NCBI GenBank assembly: GCA_018238625.1
Contig: JABCSY010000068.1
Coordinates: forward strand, 1-21,456
Direction of reading: 5' to 3'
Length of the DNA: 21,456 bases
Source of the DNA: Promethearchaeota archaeon
Lineage (GTDB): Archaea; Asgardarchaeota; Lokiarchaeia; Sigyniarchaeales; SOKP01
The notes beneath the pieces were generated by a model. It was not told the origin of the DNA. It saw nothing but the letters and a program-made list of their open reading frames with translations, and searched no databases. Shown piece by piece: positions 2,147 to 19,144 of the stretch. Positions within the stretch are counted from its first letter, which is position 1, and each line of letters opens with the position of its first letter. Both the position numbers and the translations under genes were made by a program.

Positions 2147-2263
2147 GCTCTCTTTATTTAATAATTAATAAAAAAAATTAGTCTTTGATAGAATTTTGAT
2201 AATCTTTAAAAAACAACCTAAAATATGCATTATATACATACATATACATTTAGAGGGAATAAA

Positions 2264-3265
2264 ATGAATGAAAGGCATTTTCAAGAATTTTTAGAGAATA
2301 ATAAAATTGATGAAAGCATAATAAAAAATTATCTCTCGAAAATTAGAGATTATGAAAAATTTCTCAACAAAGAAAATCTGACTCTCGAAACAGTTGAACC
2401 TAAAAAATTAGTTGATTACACTGAATATTTAGTTTCTATTGAGAAAGAATCTGTTTTAGATTTTCTTAGAGCATTAATGAATTATGCTAATTATTCCAAG
2501 AAATACGATTTTATTACTGAAGCGATAGATATTGCGGAGTCTTACATAGCAATGGAAACTTTGTTTTCAAGAATAGTTGAATTTCATGGTGAGCAGATAA
2601 GAAACGAGATTTTTAAAGATTTGATTATTCCTCCTTTAGGCGTACATCCAGAAAGGAAGCCTGAGTTCACGAAAATTGTTATGAAAAGAATGGAAGATAA
2701 ACTTGGAAAAGAGAATTCAATTAGACTTCTTTCACCATGCCTTCATGGCCGCCCACCTGATGATATTGAAGGAGACAAAAAAGACATCAAAGAATTAGGT
2801 ATTGATGGTTTTTTAGTAAAGAAACACCAAAAGTTAATCCAAAGGCTCAAGAAGCATAGAGACGAGGGGACATTAGAATTTGCTCAGTATGTTGATGATG
2901 AAGTAATAGAATTTGTGAGAAACAATCAAATGTTAGCTGAAGGCGTAAGAGAAGGAAATATCATTTATCTGTGCAAGCATCCTTATCAAATAAAGAAATT
3001 TCTAAATGTTAAAGACGACAAAATGAAAAGGTTTTATCTTTGTTACTGCCCTTGGATTCGAGGAGCATTAAAAAGCGGAACTGAAAGTGAAATCTCAAAA
3101 GATTTCTGTTATTGCAGTGCAGGTTGGTATAAACTTTATTGGGATCAAATTTTTGAACAATCTGTAAAAGTTGAACCTATTAAAACCGCCCTTGACGGTG
3201 CATTGGAATGCAAATTTGCCGTTCATTTACCTGAAAATGTATTAAACTCAAATAAAACGAAATAG
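2264..3265 (+). CDS. Cys-motif protein, DUF6144-like/V4R-like C-terminal domain; function unknown
   Basis: CYCPW...FCYCSAGWYK...W...VKVE...CKFAVHLP pattern. Start moved from 2225 to ATG 2264 because a purine-rich GAGGGA precedes it and a TATA-like TTATATA lies inside the called N-terminus. Confidence 0.6.
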   Translation: MNERHFQEFLENNKIDESIIKNYLSKIRDYEKFLNKENLTLETVEPKKLVDYTEYLVSIEKESVLDFLRALMNYANYSKKYDFITEAIDIAESYIAMETLFSRIVEFHGEQIRNEIFKDLIIPPLGVHPERKPEFTKIVMKRMEDKLGKENSIRLLSPCLHGRPPDDIEGDKKDIKELGIDGFLVKKHQKLIQRLKKHRDEGTLEFAQYVDDEVIEFVRNNQMLAEGVREGNIIYLCKHPYQIKKFLNVKDDKMKRFYLCYCPWIRGALKSGTESEISKDFCYCSAGWYKLYWDQIFEQSVKVEPIKTALDGALECKFAVHLPENVLNSNKTK

Positions 3266-6736: not shown

Positions 6737-6804
6737 ATCATCGTTGTCGAAGAATAAGATTTTTTCTAATTATATTTATATTTACATAGAATTAAGAATA
6801 TAAT

Positions 6805-7638
6805 ATGAAATTCGAAAATTTAATTTATAAAGAGATCGACCAAGTGGCTTGGATAACGCTCAATCGCCCTGATGTCATGAACGCGTTAAGCATGAAGCTT
6901 TCTGAAGAGATAGTTACGGCAATAGAAATCGTAAGGCAATCTACAAAACTTAAGTTCTTAGTTATCAAGGGCGCGGGGGATAATTTCTGCGTGGGCGATG
7001 ATATTAAAGAAATGATTAAGTGGGGAAATGCGAATGATATAACAAGAAGAGTACGATATTATCAGAATATGGCTAATCAACTCGAGGAATTGGATAAAAT
7101 CACGATTGCAGCAGTAGACGGTTTTGCGGTAGGCGGTGGCTTGGAGATTACGATGGTGTGTGATTTTGTAATTGCCACCGAGCGCTCGAAATGGGGCATG
7201 CCAGAAGTAGACGTCGGAATAACTCCCGGGTGGGGCGGTACTACGCGATTATCTCGACTCATAGGTCGACGGAGAGCTAAAGAGATTAACCTTATTGGCG
7301 CGCTCCACTCTGGGGAAAAGGCTGTAAAATGGAATCTATGGAACCGGGTTGTGCCCAACGACCAACTTGATACAGAAGTAGAACTATTATTGGACGTACT
7401 TAAATCTAAAAACCAGCAAGGCATGCGTCAACTAAAATTTATTATTAATCGCGGAGTAGAGTGTGACTTATACACGGCTCAAGGCTTTGAAGTTTTATCT
7501 GGTGCTTTAACTGGAGCTGTTAGCGGAATGTGGAAAATAAAGGACGCTGATCAAGGTAAAGGTGTAATCGGATTCACTGAAAAGGATGGTCTGTGGCAAA
7601 CTAGAAGACGGTTAGCAAAAGATTTCTGGGTTGATTAA
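6805..7638 (+). CDS. Enoyl-CoA hydratase/isomerase (crotonase family)
   Basis: ITLNRPDVMNALS, FCVGDDI, AAVDGFAVGGGLE, GMPEVDVGITPGWGGT; both catalytic Glu positions present. Confidence 0.95.
   Translation: MKFENLIYKEIDQVAWITLNRPDVMNALSMKLSEEIVTAIEIVRQSTKLKFLVIKGAGDNFCVGDDIKEMIKWGNANDITRRVRYYQNMANQLEELDKITIAAVDGFAVGGGLEITMVCDFVIATERSKWGMPEVDVGITPGWGGTTRLSRLIGRRRAKEINLIGALHSGEKAVKWNLWNRVVPNDQLDTEVELLLDVLKSKNQQGMRQLKFIINRGVECDLYTAQGFEVLSGALTGAVSGMWKIKDADQGKGVIGFTEKDGLWQTRRRLAKDFWVD
7603..7638. repeat. Left copy of an exact 36-bp direct repeat (last 12 codons of the hydratase gene, including TAA)
   Basis: AGAAGACGGTTAGCAAAAGATTTCTGGGTTGATTAA, identical to 8451-8486. Confidence 0.98.
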
Positions 7639-7763
7639 CTCTTCCTATATTGTTTTAAAGGAAAAGGTAAAAATATATTATTTCTCAAAAAATATATAAA
7701 ACACAAGAAATCTATTTTCAATACACACCAAAATCTAAATAAATATTAAAAGAGATATAATAT

Positions 7764-8033
7764 ATGATGATATCTGAAGAAGATAAAAAAATAATATTAT
7801 TATACGCAAGAAAATACAACTTAGAAAAAGTTATTCTCTTCGGTTCCTCTAAAGAGAGGGAGGATGCGCGAGATATAGATATTGGTGTAAGAGGTATAGA
7901 ACCTAAATTATTTTTTGATTTTTGCTGGGAATTGTACAGGGATTTATCGAAACCAGTAGATGTAATTGATATAAGTATAGATTGTTTATTTAATAAACTA
8001 ATAGAGGAAGATGGGTTAGTATTATATGGCTAA
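7764..8033 (+). CDS. Minimal nucleotidyltransferase (MNT) antitoxin, MntA-like
   Basis: 89 aa, VILFGS-x8-DIDIGV and downstream VDVI; overlaps the HEPN gene by 8 nt. Confidence 0.9.
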   Translation: MMISEEDKKIILLYARKYNLEKVILFGSSKEREDARDIDIGVRGIEPKLFFDFCWELYRDLSKPVDVIDISIDCLFNKLIEEDGLVLYG

Positions 8034-8463
8034 TGTTAAGGACAAAATTCTTGCGGAGAATGAAAATATTGAAAAAATTTTAATTGAATTGGAAAAAGTG
8101 AAAAAAAAACCGAGTAAAGAACTCGTAATTCTTGTAGGAATTGGAGCCTTTCTTCAAAATATCTATACGGGTATGGAAAATATTTTAAAACAAATACTTT
8201 TACACCAAAACTTACCAATCCCTGAGTCACCCACATGGCATAAAGATTTATTGAATTTTGCTTTTGACAATAAAATAATATCGAAAGAAATTCTTGATAA
8301 AATTGGTAAGTATTTAGTTTTTCGGCACTTTTTTACCCATGCTTATGGATTTTTTATTGATGAGGAGAAATTAGAACCACTTATGAATAATATTTCTGAA
8401 ATTTATTCTGAGTTTAAAAGAGAAATAGATGAATATCTCCTAAAGGAACAAGAAGACGGTTAG
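8026..8463 (+). CDS. HEPN ribonuclease toxin, HepT/DUF86-like
   Basis: R-x4-H-x-Y motif (FRHFFTHAYG), LQNIYTGMENIL and WHKDLL; paired with MNT. Confidence 0.9.
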   Translation: MANVKDKILAENENIEKILIELEKVKKKPSKELVILVGIGAFLQNIYTGMENILKQILLHQNLPIPESPTWHKDLLNFAFDNKIISKEILDKIGKYLVFRHFFTHAYGFFIDEEKLEPLMNNISEIYSEFKREIDEYLLKEQEDG

Positions 8464-8486
8464 CAAAAGATTTCTGGGTTGATTAA
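8451..8486. repeat. Right copy of the exact 36-bp direct repeat
   Basis: Identical to 7603-7638; contains the HEPN stop (TAG 8461-8463) and the A of the flavin reductase ATG (8486). Confidence 0.98.
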
Positions 8487-9046
8487 TGCTTATGAAGATA
8501 CAAATTAATAAAACAAACACCCCTATCGTATCTCCTGCCGTTGTTGTTTCGGTAGGTGAATGGGACGAGGCAAATCTCATAACGCTTGCGTGGGTTGCTC
8601 GAGTAGTGTCTGAACCGCCGGTAATGTCCGTTTCTATTCGACCATCAAGGCACTCGTATTCCCTAATTGAAAAATTGGAAGAATTCGTGATTAACGTTCC
8701 GAACGCAGGCCAAATTCGAGAGATGGATTTCTGTGGAACGAGAACAGGGAAGAAAGTAGATAAATGGAAAGAACTTAACTTAACGAAACTAAAAGGTGCT
8801 GAAGTCGATGTACCACTCATTAAAGAATTCCCGATTAATATTGAATGTAAAGTCATCAAAAAAATAAAGCTTGGCAGTCACATAATTTATTTAGGTGAAG
8901 TTTTGGCAGTTCATGTCGATGAGGAAAAATTAACCGGCAAAAAACTAGATCCGTTAAAGCAAGACCAAGTTGTATACATCACGGGTAATTATTATGGCTT
9001 AGTTAAAGAACCGCTTGAAAAACAAGCATTTTCTGTGAGGTCCTAA
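8486..9046 (+). CDS. Flavin reductase-like FMN-binding split-barrel protein (flavoredoxin family)
   Basis: NLITLAW, PPVMSVSIRPSRHSY, EFVINVP, DFCGTRTG, PLIKEFPINIECKV, GSHIIYLGEV. Confidence 0.9.
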   Translation: MLMKIQINKTNTPIVSPAVVVSVGEWDEANLITLAWVARVVSEPPVMSVSIRPSRHSYSLIEKLEEFVINVPNAGQIREMDFCGTRTGKKVDKWKELNLTKLKGAEVDVPLIKEFPINIECKVIKKIKLGSHIIYLGEVLAVHVDEEKLTGKKLDPLKQDQVVYITGNYYGLVKEPLEKQAFSVRS

Positions 9047-9189
9047 TTAGTATTACAATAGGGAATTGAAAAATCGAACGAATCAGAAATAAGAAAAACG
9101 GAAAAATTAATTAGACATGGATCGTTAATTTAATTAATTCTTTAAGAATAGAATAAAGAATTGTTTTCAAAAAAAAATTGGTTTTAAAA

Positions 9190-9468
9190 TTGGTAAAAGG
9201 AACAGTAAAATGGTTTAATAGCCGAAAAGGCTTTGGATTTATAAACTCTGAAGAAGGAAACGACGTATTTGTTCATTACACCGCATTAAGTGGTGGAGAG
9301 GACGAATATTTGACGCTAAACGAAAACGATAAGGTTGAGTTTGACGTAACAGAAGGTCAGAAAGGACCACAAGCTTCAAATGTTGTGGTAACCGAGAAAG
9401 CTCCCCCACAGTTTGGTTCATATAACCGCGGTGGTGGCGGTGGCGGCGGTAGACGAAATCGCTATTAA
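9190..9468 (+). CDS. csp: Cold-shock domain protein with Gly/Arg-rich C-terminal tail
   Basis: GTVKWFN, RNP1 KGFGFI, RNP2 [13 protein letters not shown]; tail [15 protein letters not shown]. Start TTG 9190 preferred, TTG 9178 possible. Confidence 0.95.
9430..9450 (+). repeat. (GGY)7 codon tract encoding poly-Gly
   Basis: GGTGGTGGCGGTGGCGGCGGT. Confidence 0.9.
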
Positions 9469-9711
9469 TTTATTAATTAAGTGAAGTAGTATAAATCTAA
9501 CAAAGTAATAATTTAACATAAGTATTAAATAATAATTAGTAAAAATTTTTGCGATTTTGCGATTTTTTATTTAACCTTATCTTTTTTTTAATAATTTTTA
9601 AGCTGAACTATTGATTTTGAGATTATCGCTTTCAAGTATCATAATAATTAATAAATTTAAAACATCCTTTTTCTATATACAAAAAATAAAAAGAGAAAAA
9701 AGTGGGTATTT

Positions 9712-9906
9712 ATTACAGAAAAAAAGGATGACAGTAAGATTCCAAAAAAAGAACATTCAGTTGAAGAGGTTGCTAAAATTATGGTTGAAAACATGAAAGC
9801 AAACATGGAAAACCCAAACTTTTTGAATGAAAAAGAAGCTCTATTGGAAGAAGTTACTAAAGAGGTTTTAAAAAGAAGAAAGGAAAGACAAAAAAATAAA
9901 GAATAA
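9712..9906 (+). CDS. Small charged helical protein (64 aa) missed by the ORF track, probable ATT start
   Basis: (M)TEKKDDSKIPKKEHSVEEVAKIMVENMKANMENPNFLNEKEALLEEVTKEVLKRRKERQKNKE*; purine-rich coding bias; AAAGTG 7 nt before ATT, as at the thiolase start. First in-frame ATG (9781) would give 41 aa. Confidence 0.6.
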   Translation: MTEKKDDSKIPKKEHSVEEVAKIMVENMKANMENPNFLNEKEALLEEVTKEVLKRRKERQKNKE

Positions 9907-9936
9907 ATTACTATGAAGTTAATTGATGTTTCAATC

Positions 9937-10803
9937 TTAGATAATCTCTCTGATTGATTCTTCATGTAATACTTTTGCGTTAAATTTTAAGACTCGTTTG
10001 ATTTTATCAAGGTCTGAGTAGATTGCGCCTGTTGGACAAACCATCACACAATTGAAACAGTAAATACATCCTTTTTGCTTCTTAGGTAAGTCAGATACAA
10101 TAATTACGCGTGTTGGGCAGTTTTCCTCACACAAGCCACAAGAAGTGCAGAGATCCTTATTGAAGTTGAGTTTTGGCACTCGGAAATTACTTCCAAAAAG
10201 TCGAATAAATGGATATATTACTTGAACTTTCAGATATTGATAGTTCAACATTTTTGATAATTCTCTCCACTCAATAGGGTTAGTAATTCTATACTTAACG
10301 GTTTCACAAAACTTCAATATTAGGTTTTGATCTTCAGAACTGGGAAACTCAATTGAATGTTGATAAAAATGTTTTGCTCTAAGTTTGAGAGCTCCCAATA
10401 CGGTGTAATGTTTCTTGTGAAGTATCTTAGCCATATTTATGAGCGTTTTTCCAGAGTTTACATGTCCATAAGTAGTAAAACAGAAAGAATATCGCCCTCG
10501 ACCTTTATTAATGGGAATGTTAGGGATTCCTTCCAAAAATATTTTTACAGGATCTAACATGTTTAGATGATATGTAGGAGAGCCAACGCCGAGCAATGTT
10601 GTTTCAGAGATAATAGATTCCAATTCACTGGGATCGATCCTTGCTAGGTCAATAAGTAAAACTTCCCCTTCTCCCTTTAGTCGTTCTGCGATTAATTCTG
10701 CACATTTCTTAGTACACCCATTAGGGGACATATAGACAATAGTTACTTTAGAGAAGACATCACGTTCATTAATTGTTTCTTCGCGGGATCTAAGATTTGC
10801 CAT
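9937..10803 (-). CDS. EFR1-family flavodoxin fused to a 2x[4Fe-4S] ferredoxin
   Basis: VYMSPNGCTKK and GVGSPTY flavodoxin motifs; CTSCGLCEENCP and CIYCFNCVMVCP. Confidence 0.9.
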   Translation of the reverse strand: MANLRSREETINERDVFSKVTIVYMSPNGCTKKCAELIAERLKGEGEVLLIDLARIDPSELESIISETTLLGVGSPTYHLNMLDPVKIFLEGIPNIPINKGRGRYSFCFTTYGHVNSGKTLINMAKILHKKHYTVLGALKLRAKHFYQHSIEFPSSEDQNLILKFCETVKYRITNPIEWRELSKMLNYQYLKVQVIYPFIRLFGSNFRVPKLNFNKDLCTSCGLCEENCPTRVIIVSDLPKKQKGCIYCFNCVMVCPTGAIYSDLDKIKRVLKFNAKVLHEESIREII

Positions 10804-10923
10804 AGTACTGGTGTTCCTTAATTCAAAGATATTTAATTATTAAAACTCAATGTTCTGGTTTTGATAATGTTAATGATTTAAATTAAAATAAAAAAATAGA
10901 GAATAAATTTGATTGATAATAAA

Positions 10924-12648
10924 TTATTCTGGGCTTGTACGTTTTTTAAGATATATGTATATGACAGCAGCTAAGGCTACTCCTCCAACTATAGAAACAG
11001 CGACGATAGTGATAATGATGCCTGGATCGAGACCAGCAGTGGCTTTCACAACAGTAACAGCTTCAGATGCTTCATTTCCTATAATATCTTTTGCATAGAA
11101 AGTAATTGTAACATCTCCTTCAGTTAACGCTGCCCATGCCGTTTGATTAATTATCCCGTTTTCTATAAAAGTGTAGTTGTTAATACCTCCATCTATAGTA
11201 TACCACATTGAATCTACATAAACATCAGTGATAGTTACGTCGAAAGAGGGAGCAATTAAGCCAAACACATCGCTTGAAGTAGGTGAATTAATCGTTATTG
11301 ATGGTGCGCCATCTTCTGCTATAGGTAAATAATCTATGCTTCCCGCAGACCCACCTATATATGTATAAGGGTCATCGACAATTCCATCATTTGGATCTGT
11401 ATCTGGAGTAGTCCAATTATCCCAGTAATTCCCAATTGACGTGCTATTCCAAGAGTTATCAGTTCCATCATCCTCCGCATGTTTTCCATTCTCCAGAAAG
11501 AAATTTTGATAAATTGAGTTGTTATCACACCCTGATTCAATATACATTCCCAGAGTATTATTATAAAAGATATTATCAATGATGTCATTGTAATCACCTG
11601 TCTCTATATATATTCCATAATCGTTATTGCTTATTTTGTTACCCTTGATGGTGTTATTGCTACCATCACCTAAAGATATCCCTTCGTAAGTATTACCGTT
11701 TGCGGTGTTTCCCGTAATGTTATTGTAATGACTATTGTCTATAAATATAAACACGTCGTTATAGTTTGCGGTGTTTCCCGAAACCGTGTTATGATCACTA
11801 AAATATAAATATATCCCGTATTCTCCGTTATCATTTGCTGTGTTTCCCTGAATGGTATTATTATCACTGGATGCTAGATGGATTCCATAATTAATATTAC
11901 CATTTGCGGTGTTTCCAGAGATAGTGCTATTATTACAATCCGTGTCTATAGCTATTCCTGAATCTCCATTATTGTTTACAGAGCTTCCTGAGAGAGTATT
12001 GTTAGAACCGTACTCTATATATATCCCTGATTCTCCGTTATCATTTGCAGTGTTTCCCGTAATATTATTGTAACCACAATAACTTAAATAAATCCCAAAA
12101 TTATTATCGTTTGCGGTGTTTCCCGAGATAGTATTGTTATTACATTCGTATAGATATATCCCTTCGTTAGTATTACCGTTTGCGGTGTTTCCCGAGATAG
12201 TATTGTTATTGCAAGTATCTATATCTATCCCCAGCTCCAAATTAGAACATGTATTATTAATTAATCGAGCGTTATTCACATCTTGTAAATAGATTCCTGT
12301 ATCGGTATTATTAATCAAGCAGTCTTGAATAATGAAACTTACATCCGATTGCACAATATCAATCCCTTTCCCTGTCCCGGAACCATTTATTTTGAGATTT
12401 TCAATGATATATGGATCATTCCAGTTTCCTGAACCAGAACACCACGATTGACTTTCTGCCCATGTCCAATTGTGTGCACCAACTCCGGTAGCAGCACCAT
12501 CAATAAAGATTGGTTCATGCACAGCCGATTGTTTCGGGACGCTCAACTCAGCTTGTACTCCGTTGTTGAAAATAAGCGTGTTGTTAAGTAAAAACACCAT
12601 AAATAATCCTATAAATAAAACTGTTATTTTTTTTAGTTTAGATTCCAT
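10924..12648 (-). CDS. Membrane-anchored NosD/right-handed parallel beta-helix surface protein
   Basis: N-terminal signal peptide; WCSGSGNWNDPYIIEN cap; ~23-aa NNTISGNTAN..GIYL repeats; GNYW end cap; Ig-like segment; C-terminal TM followed by KKR. Confidence 0.9.
   Translation of the reverse strand: MESKLKKITVLFIGLFMVFLLNNTLIFNNGVQAELSVPKQSAVHEPIFIDGAATGVGAHNWTWAESQSWCSGSGNWNDPYIIENLKINGSGTGKGIDIVQSDVSFIIQDCLINNTDTGIYLQDVNNARLINNTCSNLELGIDIDTCNNNTISGNTANGNTNEGIYLYECNNNTISGNTANDNNFGIYLSYCGYNNITGNTANDNGESGIYIEYGSNNTLSGSSVNNNGDSGIAIDTDCNNSTISGNTANGNINYGIHLASSDNNTIQGNTANDNGEYGIYLYFSDHNTVSGNTANYNDVFIFIDNSHYNNITGNTANGNTYEGISLGDGSNNTIKGNKISNNDYGIYIETGDYNDIIDNIFYNNTLGMYIESGCDNNSIYQNFFLENGKHAEDDGTDNSWNSTSIGNYWDNWTTPDTDPNDGIVDDPYTYIGGSAGSIDYLPIAEDGAPSITINSPTSSDVFGLIAPSFDVTITDVYVDSMWYTIDGGINNYTFIENGIINQTAWAALTEGDVTITFYAKDIIGNEASEAVTVVKATAGLDPGIIITIVAVSIVGGVALAAVIYIYLKKRTSPE
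11676..12210. repeat. Near-identical internal coding repeats of the beta-helix gene
   Basis: 34 bp exact at 12108-12141 and 12177-12210; 38/39 at 11676-11714 and 12156-12194; further related unit at ~11809-11848 and ~12019-12058. Confidence 0.9.
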
Positions 12649-12913
12649 TTCATTATACCTAAATTTATTTGATAATTAACTCTAATAAGTTATGCTTATA
12701 ATAAGTATTTTACGAATGAAAACACTTGCATTTTTGGAAATTAGAAAAGATTCAATGTTGTGCCAAATAACTCTGATATGACGAGTTACAAGGGATTTAT
12801 AGTTGGTCTGGGTTTTGATGTGAGAGCTTGATTGTTGATAAACATATATAAGATTAGGATGTAAATAAATCCATAGTTCAATTTAATTATAAAAAGTAAA
12901 GTAAAAAAAAGAT

Positions 12914-13471
12914 TTAATTCTTCAATAAATTTGCGTAGTTTTCAGTAAATTTGTTTATTTGATTCCAATCTCTCAGATCATTTCTTTGATTAGGTTTAAT
13001 TCTGGGATCTTCTTTACTAACCATCTTTATCATTTTTTTTCCTACAAATCCGACATTTGAATCTTTAGATAAATCAAGAACTCCTCCAAATACATCGTAT
13101 AAGCCAGCTGTTATTCCATATTGATTTAATACGTCCTCTATGTATTCCTTTTTTAATTCAACTACTTTTTCAGGATTGCTTGCCAGACCGGAGCTTACAA
13201 AAACACCTAAAACTACATTAGAATTTTTGAAGAATTCTAAATTATTTTCTATGAATTTTTTCGTTTCTTTTGTCCATTGACCTACTTTAATACCTGAACC
13301 GATTATGATTCCATCGTATTCCTCTAAATTGGGTTGATTTTCAGTTATCAAATCTTTAGAATTTATAGCAGAAGTATCAATCCCTTTTTCTTTTAAAGTA
13401 TTCACTATTTTACTTGAAACTTCTTCAGTACTTCCATATCTCGTTCCATAAACGATTAGAACTTTTTTCAT
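12914..13471 (-). CDS. Flavodoxin domain protein (HemG/Flavodoxin_5-like)
   Basis: LIVYGTRYGSTEEV, YDGIIIGSGI, FGGVLD, DLRDWNQI; GGAGGT SD upstream. Confidence 0.9.
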   Translation of the reverse strand: MKKVLIVYGTRYGSTEEVSSKIVNTLKEKGIDTSAINSKDLITENQPNLEEYDGIIIGSGIKVGQWTKETKKFIENNLEFFKNSNVVLGVFVSSGLASNPEKVVELKKEYIEDVLNQYGITAGLYDVFGGVLDLSKDSNVGFVGKKMIKMVSKEDPRIKPNQRNDLRDWNQINKFTENYANLLKN

Positions 13472-13511
13472 TTTTACATTACCTCCATTTTTTTCTTTTT
13501 TTATTTTATTT

Positions 13512-13730
13512 TCATAGATTTTTTAATTTTGATTTGTTTATATCAAGTCGTAGATCTCCATTCTCAAACTGGATATAAAGAACAGAATCGTCAATTAACT
13601 TAATTTGGGTTATTTCTTTAAAGTTACAAGAGAAAACAAACTCATTTTTTAAGGAATCCCAATTAAAGTAGCTAATATCTTTAATATCCTTTAATTCAAT
13701 GTTTAAATTATTTTTTTTAAGCCTTTTCAT
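13512..13730 (-). CDS. Small hypothetical protein, 72 aa
   Basis: TAATG coupling to the upstream gene; alternating beta-strand-like pattern (VLYIQFENGDLRLDI). Confidence 0.65.
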   Translation of the reverse strand: MKRLKKNNLNIELKDIKDISYFNWDSLKNEFVFSCNFKEITQIKLIDDSVLYIQFENGDLRLDINKSKLKNL

Positions 13731-14143
13731 TATTTAACAACTCCATCTTGAAATCGTGATTTATTACGGTAAAGATAGATGAGTACGATTCCTGGAACAA
13801 AGAACCCTAAAGCTGCTGTGAATTGTATTGTAATCCCCCATATATCAAATATAATGGTTGCAATACTAACAAGGATTACACCATTGAACCCCCATTTCTT
13901 CATTTGCCATAGTCCGAGAGTAGTGATAAACCCATTTATTCCCAGAATAAAGAACATTACAATTATGAACTGAAAGACAATCGGAGATACGGATACATCT
14001 AACATTGAACCTTCTGTAATATTAAGGATTCCAAAATAAATTCTGAGATATGAATTCAGAGTCCATAAAAGAAAGATAAGAATAAATGAAAAAGATCTTT
14101 TTTTTGATATTTTTTTATTGTCATTCATCAACTCTATAATCAC
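13730..14143 (-). CDS. Hypothetical membrane protein, about 4 TM
   Basis: Four hydrophobic segments, GLWQMKKWG loop. The called GTG lies in the GAGGTG SD, so the true start is probably TTG/ATG a few codons downstream. Confidence 0.75.
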   Translation of the reverse strand: MIIELMNDNKKISKKRSFSFILIFLLWTLNSYLRIYFGILNITEGSMLDVSVSPIVFQFIIVMFFILGINGFITTLGLWQMKKWGFNGVILVSIATIIFDIWGITIQFTAALGFFVPGIVLIYLYRNKSRFQDGVVK

Positions 14144-14144
14144 C

Positions 14145-14564
14145 TCATATGTTTTTCTCTATTTTTTTTTGAAAATATTTTCCCCAAAGAATAGATGAGA
14201 TTAAGGGGGTTATAAGTACTAAAATCCACATTCTACCTTGAAAAATATTATAGTCAGCGAATAACCGTTCCCATGAATGTCCTACAATGTAATGACCAAA
14301 GATAAATTCGAAGGCGATTGTAATAATTACCCAAAGAAGACCTATATAAAGAGAATCTCTGTTTTCATATTTACCTTTAATGTTATTGTAATATAGAGCA
14401 ATAACTAGAAAAAAGATACAGATACCTATAAAACAACTTATAATATGCCCAACAAACTCACCCACTATTGGTGAATACACTCCATTTCGAATTGTTCCGT
14501 TAATAATTGCGATAATACACATTAAAAACCAAATTCCTAATGCTTTTACATATATCTTATTCAT
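14145..14564 (-). CDS. Hypothetical membrane protein, about 4 TM
   Basis: AIINGTIR, IGLLWVIITIAFEFIFGHY, SWERLFADYN..GRMW; start moved from 14636 to ATG 14564 after a GGAGGA SD. Confidence 0.8.
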   Translation of the reverse strand: MNKIYVKALGIWFLMCIIAIINGTIRNGVYSPIVGEFVGHIISCFIGICIFFLVIALYYNNIKGKYENRDSLYIGLLWVIITIAFEFIFGHYIVGHSWERLFADYNIFQGRMWILVLITPLISSILWGKYFQKKIEKNI

Positions 14565-14693
14565 TTTTATTTTTCCTCCTATTATTTTTTTTTTTATATA
14601 TTTCAAAGTCATATTTTTATGACTCTTCATGATCAAGACATTTGAAAACTAAGATATAAATCAATTTTGACTAATTTCCAAACTATTTTGCCT

Positions 14694-14726
14694 AATACGA
14701 ATTTTTAGCAACAATCCGAATTTTTA
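14694..14726. promoter_or_regulatory. Direct repeat, possible operator upstream of the membrane-protein/flavodoxin operon
   Basis: AATACGAATTTTTA 14694-14707 and AATCCGAATTTTTA 14713-14726 (13/14, 19-bp period). Confidence 0.35.
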
Positions 14727-14769
14727 AGAAAATAGTAATATCTAATATAGGAAATAGACTGAAGTAAAA

Positions 14770-15510
14770 CTATGCATAAACTTTTCCTTTACTCCAAAAA
14801 TGCTCCCATAATTTTTTAAGAAAGTCAATTCCTTTAACATCTTTAATAATAATAGCTTCAGAATAATCAGGTTTATCATCACTTGTTTTAGGAAAGCAGA
14901 TTAACCCCTGTCCTAAGGAATTAAATGCCATCGCAATAGTGATGTTATCAAGAATGCGAACCCTAAATTGAGTTTTGGGATGAGCCTTTCTTGTAGTCCC
15001 CTCGCGCTTTAAAATTTCAGGAACAAAGATGTAGTTTACTTTTTTAGCTGATACACTCTCAAATGGAAATGCAGCAGCGACCATAACCCACCTCTCTTCT
15101 GCTGGTGTTTTTTGAAATTCTTTTATTTTAAACATTACTTCACCTGTTCCAGAAACAAATTCACAATCTTTTATGACATCGATCTCTCGAATTAAATGCA
15201 TAGGAAGGTCATCAATTCGATGAGTTCTAAAATATTTAGAATACCGAAAGATAAAATCAATAGGACGAAAAATTGACATTACGACCATTCCAAAGGAACT
15301 AATTTCATACTTCCGCCCAGATGGCAACTCTTTTTGAATAAACCCACATTTCATTAACCTACTTAAGTGTCGTGAAACTTCCGATTTCGAAATATCCCCT
15401 AATTTTTCGGCGATATCAGTTAAAGTTGCTGCTTTTTCAGTAAGCATAAAAAGGATTTTAATCCTTACGGGATTGGAAAGTTCTGAAATCAAATCAGAAT
15501 ATTCACTCAT
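14770..15510 (-). CDS. ArsR-type winged-helix transcription regulator with archaeal C-terminal domain
   Basis: LSNPVRIKIL, ISKSEVSRHLSRLMKCGFI, YEISSFG, then YFRTHRIDDLP. Confidence 0.85.
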   Translation of the reverse strand: MSEYSDLISELSNPVRIKILFMLTEKAATLTDIAEKLGDISKSEVSRHLSRLMKCGFIQKELPSGRKYEISSFGMVVMSIFRPIDFIFRYSKYFRTHRIDDLPMHLIREIDVIKDCEFVSGTGEVMFKIKEFQKTPAEERWVMVAAAFPFESVSAKKVNYIFVPEILKREGTTRKAHPKTQFRVRILDNITIAMAFNSLGQGLICFPKTSDDKPDYSEAIIIKDVKGIDFLKKLWEHFWSKGKVYA

Positions 15511-15580
15511 AAATTTGTATTATTATTAAACTATTTATCATTTCCTATAGACTTAATAGATAAGGTAAAACATATTTATC

Positions 15581-16417
15581 TTAAAATATCTTTTTCATTC
15601 TTTTTTCCTTTAACCAATCTATTCCAAAATCTACTATATCTCGAATGGAAATCAATCGAGCTTCAGCCAAACCAATTTTACCGGGCTTATAATTGATTTT
15701 AGATTCATAATCCTTTCCAAGTTGCTCAAAATCATCGCTATCATAATCTAGACCTTCCCATTCTACCCACTGTCTCTGATTATTCACCATCATTGCACAT
15801 CCATTTCGAATATAGCTTTTTCCAGGGAATTCGCTTCGATATTCAGCAAGATGCAACGAAGAGTTATTCTCGTGGTTTACTCCCACTAATAATATTTGTC
15901 CGTTAAGATCGTAAAGGCGGGAAGTTGGAGAATTCTCGCCTAATTCTGCTTCTAATCCGTGATTTTCGGTAATAAATTTTGCTTGCTTACCCCAAGCAGT
16001 GAACGATGAAGTAGGATGATTACTCCGAAAGACATTAGTCCAATTCCTAAAAGTTTCTACAATTCGTCCCATTGCTCTAGTAGGTGTTATTTTAACTTCG
16101 AAGGCGGGCATCTCTTCTCTTATTATACTCCACCAACTTTTAGGTACGGGAGGATTTTCCCATTGAGATGGTTCGGAATTGCCACTGGTAAATGTCGGCA
16201 TTACTAATGTACCTTCTGAAGTTAAAACTTGTGTTAGCGCTTTAATTACGGATACTGGCCCTCCAACAGTCCAACCAATTTTACTCAGCGAACTATGCAT
16301 TATAATAATTGAACCTTTTTCAACACCAAGCGTTTTAAAATCGCGTTTTAAGGAAGTTATAGTGTTAGGTTGCTTTGTTAATTTAACAACATTGCCTTCA
16401 GAGATTTTATTTTCCAT
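15581..16417 (-). CDS. AAC(3)/YokD-family aminoglycoside N3-acetyltransferase-like protein
   Basis: MHSSLSKIGW, GTLVMPTF, MGRIVETFR, RSNHP, ILLVGV, NSSLHLAE. Confidence 0.92.
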   Translation of the reverse strand: MENKISEGNVVKLTKQPNTITSLKRDFKTLGVEKGSIIIMHSSLSKIGWTVGGPVSVIKALTQVLTSEGTLVMPTFTSGNSEPSQWENPPVPKSWWSIIREEMPAFEVKITPTRAMGRIVETFRNWTNVFRSNHPTSSFTAWGKQAKFITENHGLEAELGENSPTSRLYDLNGQILLVGVNHENNSSLHLAEYRSEFPGKSYIRNGCAMMVNNQRQWVEWEGLDYDSDDFEQLGKDYESKINYKPGKIGLAEARLISIRDIVDFGIDWLKEKRMKKIF

Positions 16418-16427
16418 AGTATATTAA

Positions 16428-16470
16428 ATATTTATAGTTAAAGAGTCTTAAAATTATTTCTAATGAGATT
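16428..16470. repeat. Left copy of a degenerate 43-bp direct repeat; contains the probable aac(3) TATA box (TTTTAAGA on -)
   Basis: ATATTTATAGTTAAAGAGTCTTAAAATTATTTCTAATGAGATT; 34/43 ungapped identity to 17064-17106. Confidence 0.75.
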
Positions 16471-16523
16471 AGAATATTTAAATAATTTTATTGAATTAAT
16501 AATAAAAGAAAGAATAGAAAACA

Positions 16524-16811
16524 CTATATCTGAAGGCGCTGTTTTGAATGGAGAATTGCCACTACTTTGATTAATTTCTTATTCTCATCAATTTGATAAA
16601 GGATTCTATAATCTTTAAAAAGTAATTTTCTAATATTATGTGTCTCTAATTGAGGAATTATTCCATACCTTTTAGGGAATTCTCTAAGAGATTCGATTTT
16701 ATTATAAAAGTCTTCTAGAAAGTGTTCTGCATATTGTATAGAATTTTCTGAGTAATAATTATAAATGTTTTTTAGCTGTCGTTTGGCCTTTTCTGAGATT
16801 CTAATTTCCAT
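16524..16811 (-). CDS. RelE/ParE-family type II toxin
   Basis: 95 aa; ISEKAKRQLKNIYNY, LREFP, IRKL, YRILYQI, VVAILH; downstream of and overlapping a small acidic gene. Confidence 0.88.
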   Translation of the reverse strand: MEIRISEKAKRQLKNIYNYYSENSIQYAEHFLEDFYNKIESLREFPKRYGIIPQLETHNIRKLLFKDYRILYQIDENKKLIKVVAILHSKQRLQI

Positions 16812-17002
16812 TTTCCTGATAAACTTTTCATTTCTTCAAGAGAATAAGATCTTTCTTGCTTGAAATCCTCCAAGCCTTCTAAAACTTGTTTTTTAATGTA
16901 TAATACATCAATTAAATCTTCAATTTCCTCAGATGTAGTATCTTCAGGTAAGTCTTTGATGAGGGAGAGTATTTTTTCTTTAATTTTGCTCATATTTATC
17001 AT
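16772..17002 (-). CDS. Cognate antitoxin
   Basis: 76 aa; LPEDTTSEEI...LYIKKQVLEGLEDFKQER pattern typical of ParE-associated antitoxins; start may be ATG 16993. Confidence 0.8.
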   Translation of the reverse strand: MINMSKIKEKILSLIKDLPEDTTSEEIEDLIDVLYIKKQVLEGLEDFKQERSYSLEEMKSLSGKWKLESQKRPNDS

Positions 17003-17063
17003 AATTTTAGAGACATCTTAGACATATAAAACTTCTCATTTAATAATGATGTTTAAGCTCAAT

Positions 17064-17106
17064 ATATTTATGGCTAAAGAGTCATACAATTTTTACTTAT
17101 TAGAGT
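17064..17106. repeat. Right copy of the degenerate 43-bp direct repeat
   Basis: ATATTTATGGCTAAAGAGTCATACAATTTTTACTTATTAGAGT; 34/43 identity to 16428-16470. Confidence 0.75.
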
Positions 17107-17127
17107 GAATTTATTTTCTATACAGAT

Positions 17128-17149
17128 TAAAAAAAAATTAAAAATAAAA
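17128..17149 (-). terminator. Oligo-T terminator after the acetoacetate-CoA ligase gene
   Basis: T-tracts on the - strand immediately after the stop. Confidence 0.5.
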
Positions 17150-19144
17150 TTATTGAAGTTTATCTTTCATTTCCATATAGTAATCTAAAGAGGTGGGATT
17201 CCTTAACGCGCTTCGGTTGGCCACTTCCATACCGTGAATGATCTTTGTTACGGCAATTTCGACTTTTTTGTTGCTGAAAGTATAAGGAATGCCATCTTCG
17301 GGTGCTTGAAAGATTAATTTCGGTACATGCCTTGGGGAGGTTTTTCCTCGTAAAACTTGCCTTATTTTTGCTTGTAAATCGTCGGTTAGTTCGTATCCTT
17401 CGTTTAACAGCACAAACATTATAATACGTACATCTCCTTCCCATTTTTGGCCTATAACAAGACTATCAGCGATCTCAGGTAATTGTTCTACGACGTTATA
17501 GATTTCGGCAGTACCAATTCGTACTCCAGAAGGCTTTAAAACGGCGTCCGAACGACCCCAGAAGGTAATACCTCCAGTATCGCTATGAATGACTATGTAA
17601 TCGCCATGCCGCCAAACCATTTTTCCTACGTCTTTATAGTAGTCAAAATAGGCAGCTTTATATTTAGTCATGTTATCGTCATCGCCCCAGAAATAAATTG
17701 GCATCGAAGGTACGGGAGCTTCACATACAAGTTCGGCCTGTAAATCTTCAATAGGTTCGGCTTTCTCAGAATACGATTCTACTTTCATCGCTAAAGCGCG
17801 CCCTTGCAATTCTCCAGAATATACAGGTAAAATAGGTATTGCTCCAGCAAAACAACCGTTAATATCTGTCCCGCCACTGATTGAATTGAAAAAGAGATCT
17901 TTTTTAATCTCTCGATAGACATATTCAAAACCTTCAGGAGATAATGTAGATGCGGTTTGCGAGATCTCTCTTAATTCACTTAGATCATATTTCTCAGCGG
18001 GCTTTACCCCAAGTCCCATTAGGTAATGAATATAGGCCGCACTAGTACCAAATATAGTTACCTTATGTTTTTCTATTAATTCAAAAAACCTTAATGGTTC
18101 TGGATATAACGGATTTCCATCGTACAAAAATATTGTTGCACCCGTGGCTAAGGCACTGATAAGCCAGTTCCACATCATCCATGAAGGCGCTGTAATATAA
18201 TTAATGACATCGCTTCTTTTTACATCAGTAGATAAGATTAATTCTTTTAAATGATTGATCAATACACCACCAGCGCCTTGAACCATACACTTAGGTTTTC
18301 CCGTTGTTCCTGATGAAAACATCACGTATAGAGGATGGTCAAAAGGTAACTGTTCATAGTCAAGATTTGGATCTTCCTCTTTTGAAATAAAATCATCCCA
18401 ATGTACTGCGTTTGGAATGTGGCTTATCTTAGGTTTTCCATCAGTGATGTAAGACGCCACTACTACTTTTTCTATCGAAGGAATAGCTTCAACCACAGTT
18501 TTAGCATTCTCAGTGATATTAAATTCTTTGTCCCTATAGAAATATCCATCAACGGTAAAGAGAACTCTTGGCTCAATTTGTCCAAAACGATCGATTACTG
18601 CGTTCGATTGTAATTCTGCGCCACATGAAGCCCAAGTTGCTCCAATGGCAGTAGCAGCTAACATGGCAATAGGGGTTTCAATCAAATTTGGAATGTAGGA
18701 AACAACTCGATCCCCTGCTTTAACTCCCATTTCCTTGAGAGATTTTGCTAAGCGTGCAACTACCTTATTTAGTTCGGCATAAGTAATTTGCTTCGAAACC
18801 TTGGTTTCTCCTTGAAAAACAAAAGCTAATTGGTCATCTTTATACTTGAGTAGATTCTCCGCAAAATTCAATCTTGCCCCGGGAAACCATTTGGTTCCTG
18901 GGAAAACACTTAGATTCTCAACAACTTTATCATATGGTTTAGAAGCTACAATACCTCCAAAGTCCCACATGCCCGCCCAGAAATCCTCGATCTTTTCTAC
19001 AGACCATCTATATAGATCTTTACCTCCCTTAATTTCTTGACCATATTTTTTATTTACATATCCGATAAACTTGGTTATCTCAGCGTTTTTAATCCATTCA
19101 TCGGAGGGTTCCCATAATTTTTTTTTATTTGAAATGATTAACAC
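17150..19144 (-). CDS. Acetoacetate-CoA ligase (acetoacetyl-CoA synthetase)
   Basis: WFPGARLNFAENLL, MFSSGTTGKPKC, SWMMWNWL, SISGGTD, VWRHGD, GRSDAVLKPSGVRIGTAEIY, KKVE; true start possibly ATT 19135. Confidence 0.95.
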   Translation of the reverse strand: MLIISNKKKLWEPSDEWIKNAEITKFIGYVNKKYGQEIKGGKDLYRWSVEKIEDFWAGMWDFGGIVASKPYDKVVENLSVFPGTKWFPGARLNFAENLLKYKDDQLAFVFQGETKVSKQITYAELNKVVARLAKSLKEMGVKAGDRVVSYIPNLIETPIAMLAATAIGATWASCGAELQSNAVIDRFGQIEPRVLFTVDGYFYRDKEFNITENAKTVVEAIPSIEKVVVASYITDGKPKISHIPNAVHWDDFISKEEDPNLDYEQLPFDHPLYVMFSSGTTGKPKCMVQGAGGVLINHLKELILSTDVKRSDVINYITAPSWMMWNWLISALATGATIFLYDGNPLYPEPLRFFELIEKHKVTIFGTSAAYIHYLMGLGVKPAEKYDLSELREISQTASTLSPEGFEYVYREIKKDLFFNSISGGTDINGCFAGAIPILPVYSGELQGRALAMKVESYSEKAEPIEDLQAELVCEAPVPSMPIYFWGDDDNMTKYKAAYFDYYKDVGKMVWRHGDYIVIHSDTGGITFWGRSDAVLKPSGVRIGTAEIYNVVEQLPEIADSLVIGQKWEGDVRIIMFVLLNEGYELTDDLQAKIRQVLRGKTSPRHVPKLIFQAPEDGIPYTFSNKKVEIAVTKIIHGMEVANRSALRNPTSLDYYMEMKDKLQ

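Follow-up and report, generated by a model that had tools for sequence, protein, structure and literature searches.

Direct repeats around toxin-antitoxin cassettes in a Lokiarchaeia genome: candidate scars of recombination between differently loaded alleles

For restriction-modification (R-M) systems, a pattern named “insertion with long target duplication” has been described, the criteria of which, in the available part of the source (Furuta, Abe & Kobayashi 2010, PMC2853133), are a whole module within a segment of less than 20 kb, no mobility genes, a direct repeat of more than 30 bp, and a single copy of that sequence in an insert-less relative. Homology-facilitated illegitimate recombination (HFIR) is described for naturally transformable bacteria and E. 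coli conjugation in the accessible sections of PMC3240628, and those of PMC5361080 propose HFIR with retention of old immunity genes for the effector-immunity arrays of type VI secretion systems (T6SS) and for orphan modules of Rhs and contact-dependent inhibition (CDI) systems. Here, we set beside these systems a window of 21,456 nucleotides from a Promethearchaeota archaeon (Lokiarchaeia; assembly GCA_018238625.1) that holds two toxin-antitoxin (TA) cassettes, one of MntA/HepT and one of RelE/ParE type, each between direct repeats. We read both cassettes as addiction modules of an ordinary kind, lodged at hypervariable sites that conserved genes enclose. An earlier note on this DNA had taken them for integrase-less mini-cassettes inserted with target duplications of about 35-45 bp. 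We give about an even chance to a different explanation, that the repeats are scars of additive recombination between differently loaded alleles, similar to HFIR, and that no new insertion enzyme was involved.

The window, which means the whole stretch analyzed, is the first 21,456 bases of contig C8 (JABCSY010000068.1) of the metagenome-assembled genome (MAG) G000, which comprises 4.29 Mb in 201 contigs with 32% G+C, an estimated completeness of 97.9% and an estimated contamination of 7.6%. The locus was compared with 40 relatives first and then with 41 genomes of the genus; L-numbers denote sequence stretches, among which L098-L100 are metagenome contigs. Pfam matches elsewhere in G000 include Ras/Roc GTPases, a longin domain, TFIIB, RING and MIT domains, a set that suggests an archaeon of Asgard type.

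One cassette and four local duplications

Both flanking repeats of the window are real. For repeat 1, a repeat search of the window paired 7599-7643 with 8447-8491 (45 nt, 93%), and direct reading gives 36 exact nucleotides (7603-7638 = 8451-8486) and 39/40 matches over 7599-7638 and 8447-8486. Copy 1 consists of the last 12 codons and the stop codon of an enoyl-CoA hydratase (ECH) gene, and copy 2 closes in a TAATG stop/start overlap with the flavin reductase gene at 8486-9046. The last codons and the stop of HepT come from copy 2, by which the native C-terminus (the last four codons and stop) is replaced; the longer native end, ...KVKG*, is present in G008 and G056. The two copies are spaced 848 nt apart, a unit that contains both the MntA and the HepT gene, and those of repeat 2 are 636 nt apart, in line with the 0.6-0.85 kb given for the units in the earlier note. 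By family-level membership, with NCBIfam equivalog scores below cut-off, the pair at 7764-8463 is a predicted type VII HepT/MntA TA system, and the HEPN R-x(4-6)-H motif can be read from the HepT translation as RHFFTH.

The MntA/HepT cassette is present in three of the 41 genus genomes, namely G016 (99% identical), G056 (98%) and G008 (95%). The window structure with both repeat copies is reproduced in the independently assembled G016 and in the metagenome contig L098. A clean empty site exists in G020, in which the ECH gene is joined directly to the flavin reductase gene with a single 40-mer, and repeat 1 is therefore local host sequence, as had been proposed. G008 has the same empty ECH/flavin reductase junction as G020, and its cassette lies 600 nt beyond, on the far side of the flavin reductase gene, where it is bracketed by a 67-nt direct repeat of the next intergenic region (the equivalent of window 9047-9113). 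G056 and the metagenome contigs L099 and L100 have no flavin reductase gene at the locus, and their order is ECH, the intergenic segment that follows it (IG1), the cassette with the full HepT end, a second ECH end plus IG1 of about 256 nt, and a cold-shock gene. Distant homologues of the cassette in L101-L104 (81-90% nucleotide identity) have different surroundings, with a thiolase gene downstream of two of them; in L102 the cassette is bracketed by a 74-nt direct repeat of the thiolase 5' region, and L101 is without such a repeat. One cassette family is found with four unrelated local duplications, of 40 nt (G000, G016 and L098), 67, 74 and 256 nt. In the more distant homologues the shared sequence begins only at about 7720 or 7755.

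Logan contigs from four of four runs, belonging to four studies, contain the cassette bounded by repeats, and they break inside the repeats as expected for 31-mer graphs. No joint indicative of an excision product or an empty site appeared among them, which carries no weight either way for excision. In these runs (X1, X3, X6 and X11; marine or cold-seep sediments), the cassette within window 6800-9300 shows 0-4 differences, and extra contigs at 90-95% identity cover the ECH and flavin reductase flanks. The run data fit a cassette common to several co-existing lineages.

The left edge of the cassette does not coincide with the end of the repeat. Six relatives (G007, G013, G010, G004, G002 and G024) have neither cassette nor flavin reductase gene, and the alignment shows that, in every one of them, a homologue of window 7639-7682 comes between ECH and the cold-shock region; homology to these cassette-less relatives ends after about 7682. 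The real left junction of the foreign DNA would therefore lie at about 7682 and not at the repeat end. Where the left junction seems to lie, directly after repeat copy 1, is exactly the point at which the two allele types cease to be homologous, as expected for a homologous crossover, and only the right junction, at which HepT minus four codons is joined to ECH -40, appears to be illegitimate. The earlier note had taken the whole MntA/HepT unit for the insert; the TA pair is indeed bracketed, but the 44 nt to its left are native intergenic DNA.

Between G000 and G056, identity is 60-85% through ECH and IG1 and 97-100% from about 7676 through the cassette. Given that the ECH genes of the two genomes are only 70-85% identical, the cassette was exchanged recently between lineages whose neighboring gene is about 20% diverged.

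Several repeat copies resemble alleles more than decayed duplicates. The two ECH-end copies of G056 differ at 35 coding sites, 28 of which are third codon positions (p = 2e-8 against an expectation of 1/3; p = 2.5e-4 against 1/2). In G008, two inserted genes lie between copies of the acyl-CoA synthetase (ACS) 3' end, the duplicate being 142 nt long, and these copies show 31 differences with 21 in third position (p = 9e-5 against 1/3; p = 0.035 against 1/2). Decay in place would hit all codon positions, so an excess of third positions looks like two alleles that evolved as working genes. At the ParDE locus, the left copy of G008 (132 nt) is identical to the native copy of G000 at 119/132 positions and to the right copy of G008 at 86/132. 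These comparisons suggest that several repeat copies are scars between alleles and often not true target duplications. Together with the native 44 nt on the left, copies that differ mainly at third codon positions or resemble the allele of another species speak against a simple cassette with target duplication, as it had been pictured.

A stack of cassettes on contig C83 of G000 extends this observation. There, a thioredoxin-reductase-like gene has its 3' end in three copies (76, about 65 and about 145 nt), and the order is reductase-like gene, TumE pair A, 65-nt gene end with native intergenic DNA, PIN/MazE block B, 145-nt gene end, TumE pair C (a diverged allele of A) and xerA-like gene. In G008 the locus consists of the reductase-like gene, TumE pair A and xerA with no duplication. 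Direct reading of G016 and G010 shows a short spacer (about 95 nt in G016) between the reductase-like and xerA-like genes, with no cassette, and from match positions most other relatives in the genus seem to be empty here as well. Each gene-end copy precedes the flank predicted for it, which suggests that three differently loaded alleles were joined head to tail by sequential additive recombination. An apparent duplicate at this locus in G024 was ruled out as a cassette scar, since it is a full tandem paralogue gene. The hot spot has the coordinates 8766-14418 on C83 (L068) and 51167-51797 on contig C48 of G000, directly upstream of the xerA-like gene.

Genome-wide survey and the second cassette

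Repeat pairs 300-3000 nt apart were collected from G000 with a seed-and-extend script, which returned 566 direct pairs of at least 25 nt versus 25 inverted ones; repeat proteins or paralogues account for many of the direct ones. With the same filters applied to both classes (28-120 nt, at least 88% identity, low-complexity sequence excluded), 185 direct and 7 inverted pairs remained. A further filter, for isolation and dissimilar flanks, retained 35 “isolated” direct pairs with lengths of 28-92 nt, the lower bound being set by the filter, a median of 48 nt and 11 of 35 pairs in the 35-44 bin. The length distribution is broad, with a weak mode at most. A preferred duplication of 35-45 bp, as the earlier note had it, is not borne out by these lengths, nor by a single cassette that occurs with 40, 67, 74 and 256 nt.

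Family searches identified 33 TA toxin genes in G000 (7 ParE, 16 PIN, 1 HepT-like_2, 6 HepT and 3 TumE). In the bracketing test, which used a slightly wider set of 110 repeat pairs, six of the 33 toxin genes were bracketed by an isolated direct pair versus 71/4032 open reading frames (ORFs) of at least 60 aa (Fisher p = 2.8e-5). Among ORFs of 60-200 aa, 33/1500 were bracketed (p = 1.2e-4 versus the 6/33 toxin genes). The enrichment persists without the case that prompted the survey (5/32, p = 2.7e-4) and when counted by loci (about 4/30, p = 0.002), and a seventh candidate, a HepT on contig C82, lies inside a 43-nt pair that failed the flank filter. A genome-wide enrichment of toxin genes inside direct-repeat pairs, which had been put forward as a check, is thus present, and it could equally reflect a high turnover of TA genes.

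Pfam annotation covered 147 ORFs in 29 loci of isolated pairs, excluding the pair of the window itself. On contig C139, repeats of 52 and 29 nt bracket a ParDE-like pair, and on contig C52 a 49-nt repeat brackets a 73-aa ORF together with a weakly GNAT-like ORF (E 9e-4, below cut-off). Non-TA cargo bracketed elsewhere comprises a malic enzyme, an FGGY kinase, a histidine kinase, an epimerase and a leucine-rich repeat (LRR) protein. The malic-enzyme gene lies inside an 84-nt repeat on contig C13 (46837-48570; L054), one copy of which is the 3' end of a URO-D-like neighbor, and it indicates that the same architecture also occurs with non-TA cargo.

Repeat 2, around the second cassette of the window, matches at 33/41 positions (80%; 16428-16468 versus 17064-17104). 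The best ungapped score between the intergenic flanks is 17, which was reached in 1/1000 dinucleotide shuffles and in 0/1500 unrelated intergenic pairs of G000; the repeat, though weak, exceeds chance. An old scar of this type is one possible origin, and a regulatory motif common to both sites is another. The earlier note had read a difference in age from the identities of the two repeats (100% versus about 79%), which stand here at 39/40 (36 nt exact) and 33/41. Between its copies, 16524-17002 encodes a RelE/ParE-family toxin whose gene overlaps a 76-aa upstream ORF that is only weakly RelB-like, and the pair is a predicted type II RelE/ParE TA system with a putative partner. This cassette was found in none of the 40 relatives, among which no empty site was seen and the neighbor genes are never adjacent. 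The slot between the acetyltransferase and ACS genes is occupied by a 553-aa gene and a 64+96-aa pair in G016, and by two paralogous genes, the 142-nt ACS-end duplicate and a 64+84-aa pair in G008.

Between the flavin reductase and ACS genes, all 8 kb (window 9047-17149) are hypervariable in close relatives. G016 is without window 9635-12868 and 13505-15545, and the flavin reductase and ACS genes are only about 0.9 kb apart in G020 and separated by about 4.5 kb of partly different content in G008. The Antibiotic_NAT-type gene, here in an archaeal sediment genome, is conserved beside variable cargo in many genus relatives. A NosD/right-handed beta-helix gene at 10924-12648 (-) has 66-69-nt periodic repeats at 11554-12232, which are coding repeats and not mobile DNA. 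The cold-shock-domain gene at window 9178-9468 has a glycine/arginine-rich tail and is found in tandem copies in relatives, with three units in G007 (L045 4290-5910) and two in G004 and G002; the tandem junction of G007 repeats the last 14 nt of ECH and the intergenic region. The features of the two cassettes and their neighbors are listed in Table 1.

Table 1. Coordinates of the two cassettes, their repeats and adjacent genes in the window
Feature	Position	Strand	Evidence and remarks
Enoyl-CoA hydratase (ECH) gene	6805..7638	+	Pfam ECH_1, E 4.9e-50; kept in most genus relatives
Repeat 1 copy 1	7599..7638	+	40 nt; 7603-7638 exact match to copy 2; single copy in G020 empty site
Native ECH-downstream intergenic segment IG1	7639..7682	+	Homologous to post-ECH DNA in 6 cassette-less relatives
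TA upstream region, left end of recently exchanged segment	7683..7763	+	Identity jump to G056 at ~7676
MntA-like minimal nucleotidyltransferase, predicted antitoxin of type VII pair	7764..8033	+	Pfam Polbeta, E 1.3e-6; NCBIfam MntA_antitoxin, E 2.8e-5, below cut-off
HepT-like HEPN toxin (predicted)	8026..8463	+	Pfam HepT-like_2, E 1.4e-19
Repeat 1 copy 2	8447..8486	+	Second ECH 3' end copy, ends in TAATG overlap; also in G016 and L098
Flavin reductase gene	8486..9046	+	Pfam Flavin_Reduct, E 9.3e-31; absent from relatives with ECH directly before cold-shock gene
Intergenic segment IG2	9047..9113	+	67-nt segment, duplicated around same TA cassette in G008
Aminoglycoside 3-N-acetyltransferase-like gene	15581..16417	-	Pfam Antibiotic_NAT, E 5.4e-89; neighbor of cassette 2
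Repeat 2 copy 1	16428..16468		Immediately upstream of acetyltransferase start; region conserved in G016 up to window 16487
RelE/ParE-family toxin (predicted)	16524..16811	-	Pfam ParE_toxin, E 1.4e-17; NCBIfam RelE_StbE, E 1.4e-8
Putative antitoxin	16772..17002	-	By position and weak NCBIfam RelB_antitoxin match, E 0.0037, below cut-off; no Pfam TA family
Repeat 2 copy 2	17064..17104		Intergenic, downstream of ACS gene; window 17059-17136 72-77% conserved in G016 and G008
Acyl-CoA synthetase (ACS) gene	17150..19144	-	Pfam AMP-binding; other neighbor of cassette 2

Enzymes and routes that could leave such repeats

No enzyme that could have inserted the cassettes was identified at the loci. Cas1 (PF01867) gave 0 matches in G000 (97.9% complete), where the control search matched 7/14 reference genomes, and Resolvase, the serine recombinase family, gave 0 matches in the same genome. 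Phage_integrase matched twice, in a conserved xerA-like gene and on contig C89, and RVT_1 once, on contig C147, far from all cassette loci; Cas1 or casposase, serine recombinases and reverse transcriptases were rejected as culprits on these counts. None of the 24 window ORFs scanned with Pfam contains a transposase or integrase catalytic family, and no tyrosine recombinase lies beside the cassettes of the window, C139 or C52; the xerA-like gene adjoins the C83 hot spot. A search for terminal inverted repeats yielded nothing convincing, only weak AT-rich pairs and none at both termini. On both counts, no transposase and no terminal inverted repeats, the sequence reading of the earlier note stands, and its inventory of Cas1, tyrosine, serine and reverse transcriptase genes has the outcome given above. 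An ORF at 2225-3265 (+; 346 aa) has weak N-terminal integrase SAM-like matches (E 0.003-0.016) and a weak DUF6144 match. It was discarded as a hidden integrase, having no catalytic domain and neither a PDB match (E up to 1) nor one in NCBIfam, and could be a very divergent recombinase or something unrelated.

A shared-motif test on 38 repeats, confined to exact k-mers of 6-10 nt, found none beyond shuffles. Combined with the null results for Cas1 and Resolvase, this outcome speaks against both a Cas1-type route and a single att-like site. The architecture recurs with locus-specific repeats and not at one att site, as had been claimed. The suggested Cas1-type staggered integration finds no footing in a genome without Cas1 matches, in repeats of 28-256 nt or in termini that lack inverted repeats, and the other suggestion, a repair-linked capture, is the closest to what the data favor.

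We infer an HFIR-like route for these structures. The incoming DNA would come from a different strain or species and represent an allele of the locus that carries another load. One of its ends would be joined by a homologous crossover inside the shared neighbor gene and the other by an illegitimate joint just beyond the TA pair; a circular or circularised fragment integrating by a single crossover would give the same product. Because the resident TA pair would be kept and the incoming DNA added, a piece of the neighbor would be present twice and the copies would be allelic, and repetition of the process would stack cassettes.

For the window, the two parents would be a TA-bearing allele (ECH, IG1 and TA pair) and a flavin-reductase allele in which ECH overlaps the reductase gene, as in G020. 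Their product would consist of ECH, IG1, a slightly truncated TA pair, the last 40 nt of ECH from the other allele, and the flavin reductase gene, which is the structure observed. In G008 the same two allele types would have been combined with the illegitimate joint on the other side, so that IG2 was duplicated instead. The joint of cassette A to the 65-nt gene end on C83 has 8 nt of microhomology (TAGTTTTT) and the G008 joint has 4-5 nt; none is evident at the HepT/ECH joint of the window.

The enrichment at TA genes may stem from addiction, as a clean swap to a TA-less allele would kill the cell. From this we infer, tentatively and thinking it a good deal more apt to be wrong than right, an addiction-driven accretion in which TA modules resist allelic replacement, the surviving recombinants are additive, and cassettes stack between housekeeping genes with allelic repeats at their boundaries. 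If true, such accretion would be a recombinase-free route to variable and defense islands, and repeat-cassette-repeat units could loop out and re-enter by homologous recombination alone, which would make TA pairs effectively mobile between species.

Several observations weigh against a recombinational origin of the repeats. The jump from 60-85% to 97-100% identity between G000 and G056 occurs within about 10 nt of the cassette edge; homologous exchange should carry some flanking DNA with it, and so sharp an edge is more suggestive of a discrete, precisely ended unit. None of the 41 genus genomes searched showed the parental allele predicted for the G000 clade (ECH, G000-type IG1, TA pair and cold-shock gene, without flavin reductase). 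In 25 repeat pairs of G000 with one copy in a long ORF, the differences fall 41/27/75 by codon position, and the 52% in third position are what in-situ duplication followed by decay of the pseudo-copy would give; the genome-wide codon-position test was therefore dropped as a discriminator because it does not separate the models, and the allelic signal is left to the three cases in relatives and the logic of the flanks. Homologous recombination that replaced the functional gene after a true duplication could likewise produce copies of allelic appearance. The nearest relatives of the two ECH-end copies of G056 are the same, G013 and G010, which points to no particular donor lineage, and the repeat 1 copies of the window, which differ at 1/40 nt, are uninformative either way. 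Furthermore, 27 of the 33 TA toxin genes are without such a repeat, most of the bracketed ORFs are not TA genes, and the route would presuppose DNA uptake, HFIR and post-segregational killing in these hosts.

Some of these observations sit better with a dedicated, sequence-independent insertion that makes a true target duplication, by ligation of a TA fragment into a long-staggered, filled-in break or by an enzyme acting in trans; this corresponds to the model of the earlier note and to insertion with long target duplication in the literal sense. The precise empty site of G020 with its one 40-mer, the near-identity of the repeat 1 copies (39/40), the sharp boundary of the exchanged segment at the cassette edge, the genome-wide 52% of third positions and the excess of direct over inverted pairs (185 versus 7 under the same filters) are all as such a process would leave them. 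We nevertheless consider it unlikely, as 7639-7682 beside copy 1 is native to the locus in other lineages, the copies in G056 and G008 look allelic and not like decayed duplicates, and G008 has a TumE cassette at the C83 locus with no duplication. Lengths from 28 to 256 nt also speak against a fixed stagger, and neither Cas1 in G000 nor a candidate enzyme at any of the loci was found.

Local tandem duplication of a gene end together with a cassette, by unequal sister exchange and with one cargo copy later deleted or replaced, would be a further origin. Plain tandem duplications are seen at the ECH locus itself, where G007 has three cold-shock units, and tandem paralogues also lie between the ACS-end copies of G008. 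Each case would require two or more steps, and the intermediate with two TA copies is seen at no locus. The divergence of the copies as alleles and the G008 copy that is nearer to the G000 allele are left unexplained, which makes this origin improbable.

Att sites typically have repeat lengths of 30-90 nt and overlap gene 3' ends, and the cassettes pile up at hot spots, of which one directly adjoins the xerA-like gene. They could accordingly be pictured as non-autonomous site-specific elements of the cis-mobilizable element (CIME), integron or Xer type that are moved in trans by a tyrosine recombinase, with the repeats as attL and attR; the available part of PMC9668308 reports integrons in Archaea. 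We see quite little prospect for this picture when the same cassette lies between four unrelated repeats, the 38 repeats have no motif in common (exact k-mers of 6-10 nt) and distant cassette homologues share no terminal sequence beyond promoter and genes. Moreover, neither of the two Phage_integrase matches of G000 lies beside loci other than C83, and the extent of the repeat copies varies at one locus (65, 76 and 145 nt).

Chance matches or assembly chimeras of co-existing strains, which a MAG with 7.6% estimated contamination and an 80% repeat 2 in AT-rich DNA bring to mind, are very hard to credit, as the repeat 1 structure recurs in the independently assembled G016 and L098 and the 256-nt form in G056, L099 and L100, the junctions have no more than about 8 nt in common, which falls far short of what an assembler needs for a join, repeat 2 scores above 999/1000 shuffles and all 1500 control pairs, and Logan contigs of 4/4 runs (4 studies) show a repeat-bounded cassette.

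Comparison with known systems

Recombination between differently loaded alleles, as preferred here, offers a testable mechanism (anchored plus illegitimate recombination, with addiction as a filter) in place of a hypothetical new integrase. The spread of chromosomal TA pairs without mobile-element machinery is a long-standing loose end, and in this case one cassette could be traced across four species and several metagenome contigs, in which its flanking duplications are of four kinds. For Asgard genomes, short pseudo-copies of gene ends beside small accessory genes can mark past recombination between lineages.

Casposons encode Cas1, are bounded by terminal inverted repeats and duplicate a fixed length of about 14-15 bp of their target. 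The cassettes resemble casposon or Cas1 integration in the absence of a classical transposase and in the duplication of the target, and differ from it in that there is no match to Cas1 in G000, no terminal inverted repeat and no short fixed duplication. With integron cassettes they share that small, promoter-poor or TA-bearing cassettes are stacked at a hot spot. Integron cassettes are bounded by attC with IntI beside the array, whereas the boundaries here are local copies of neighbor genes with no accompanying integrase.

Like documented HFIR, the proposed events would have one end anchored by homology and the other joined illegitimately, with short microhomology at two joints (8 nt at C83 and 4-5 nt in G008) and none evident at that of the window. 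Unlike it, they are deduced from end products only and in an archaeal host; a limited search of the literature, part of it accessible in excerpt, found no demonstration of HFIR in archaea.

The arrays of Vibrio cholerae T6SS and orphan Rhs modules, as far as the available sections of PMC5361080 describe them, are similar in that new modules join a constant anchor without loss of the older protective genes, displaced modules lie behind a piece of the constant region, and selection against loss of a protective gene is invoked. The anchors differ, being here unrelated housekeeping genes (ECH, thioredoxin-reductase-like, ligase-like and ACS) and not a toxin gene, and the units retained here are complete TA pairs.

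The R-M pattern, in the accessible part of PMC2853133, likewise involves a small addiction-type unit with no transposase or integrase, between direct repeats of target sequence that exceed 30 bp and vary in length, and the repeats flank such genes more often than average genes. Repeat 1 of the window agrees with its structural criteria: the module is whole, there are no mobility genes, 36 nt of the repeat are exact, and G020 has a single copy. Repeat 2, at 41 nt, exceeds 30 bp but is only 80% identical. The cargo differs, as it consists of TA pairs and not R-M genes, and the host is archaeal. A double-strand break made by the R-M enzyme, an idea offered for that pattern, cannot be the common cause, because HepT and PIN are RNases by family. 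Beyond the R-M pattern, part of the apparent insert here is native DNA, and some repeat copies appear to be diverged alleles.

In the literature consulted, with limited coverage of subscription journals, no report of the flanking-duplication pattern was found for TA cassettes or for archaea. The finding ties the spread of TA pairs to the R-M pattern and to the displacement arrays of T6SS and Rhs and extends the pattern to archaea; it is best filed as a known but unexplained pattern, in which the TA cargo and the archaeal host are new.

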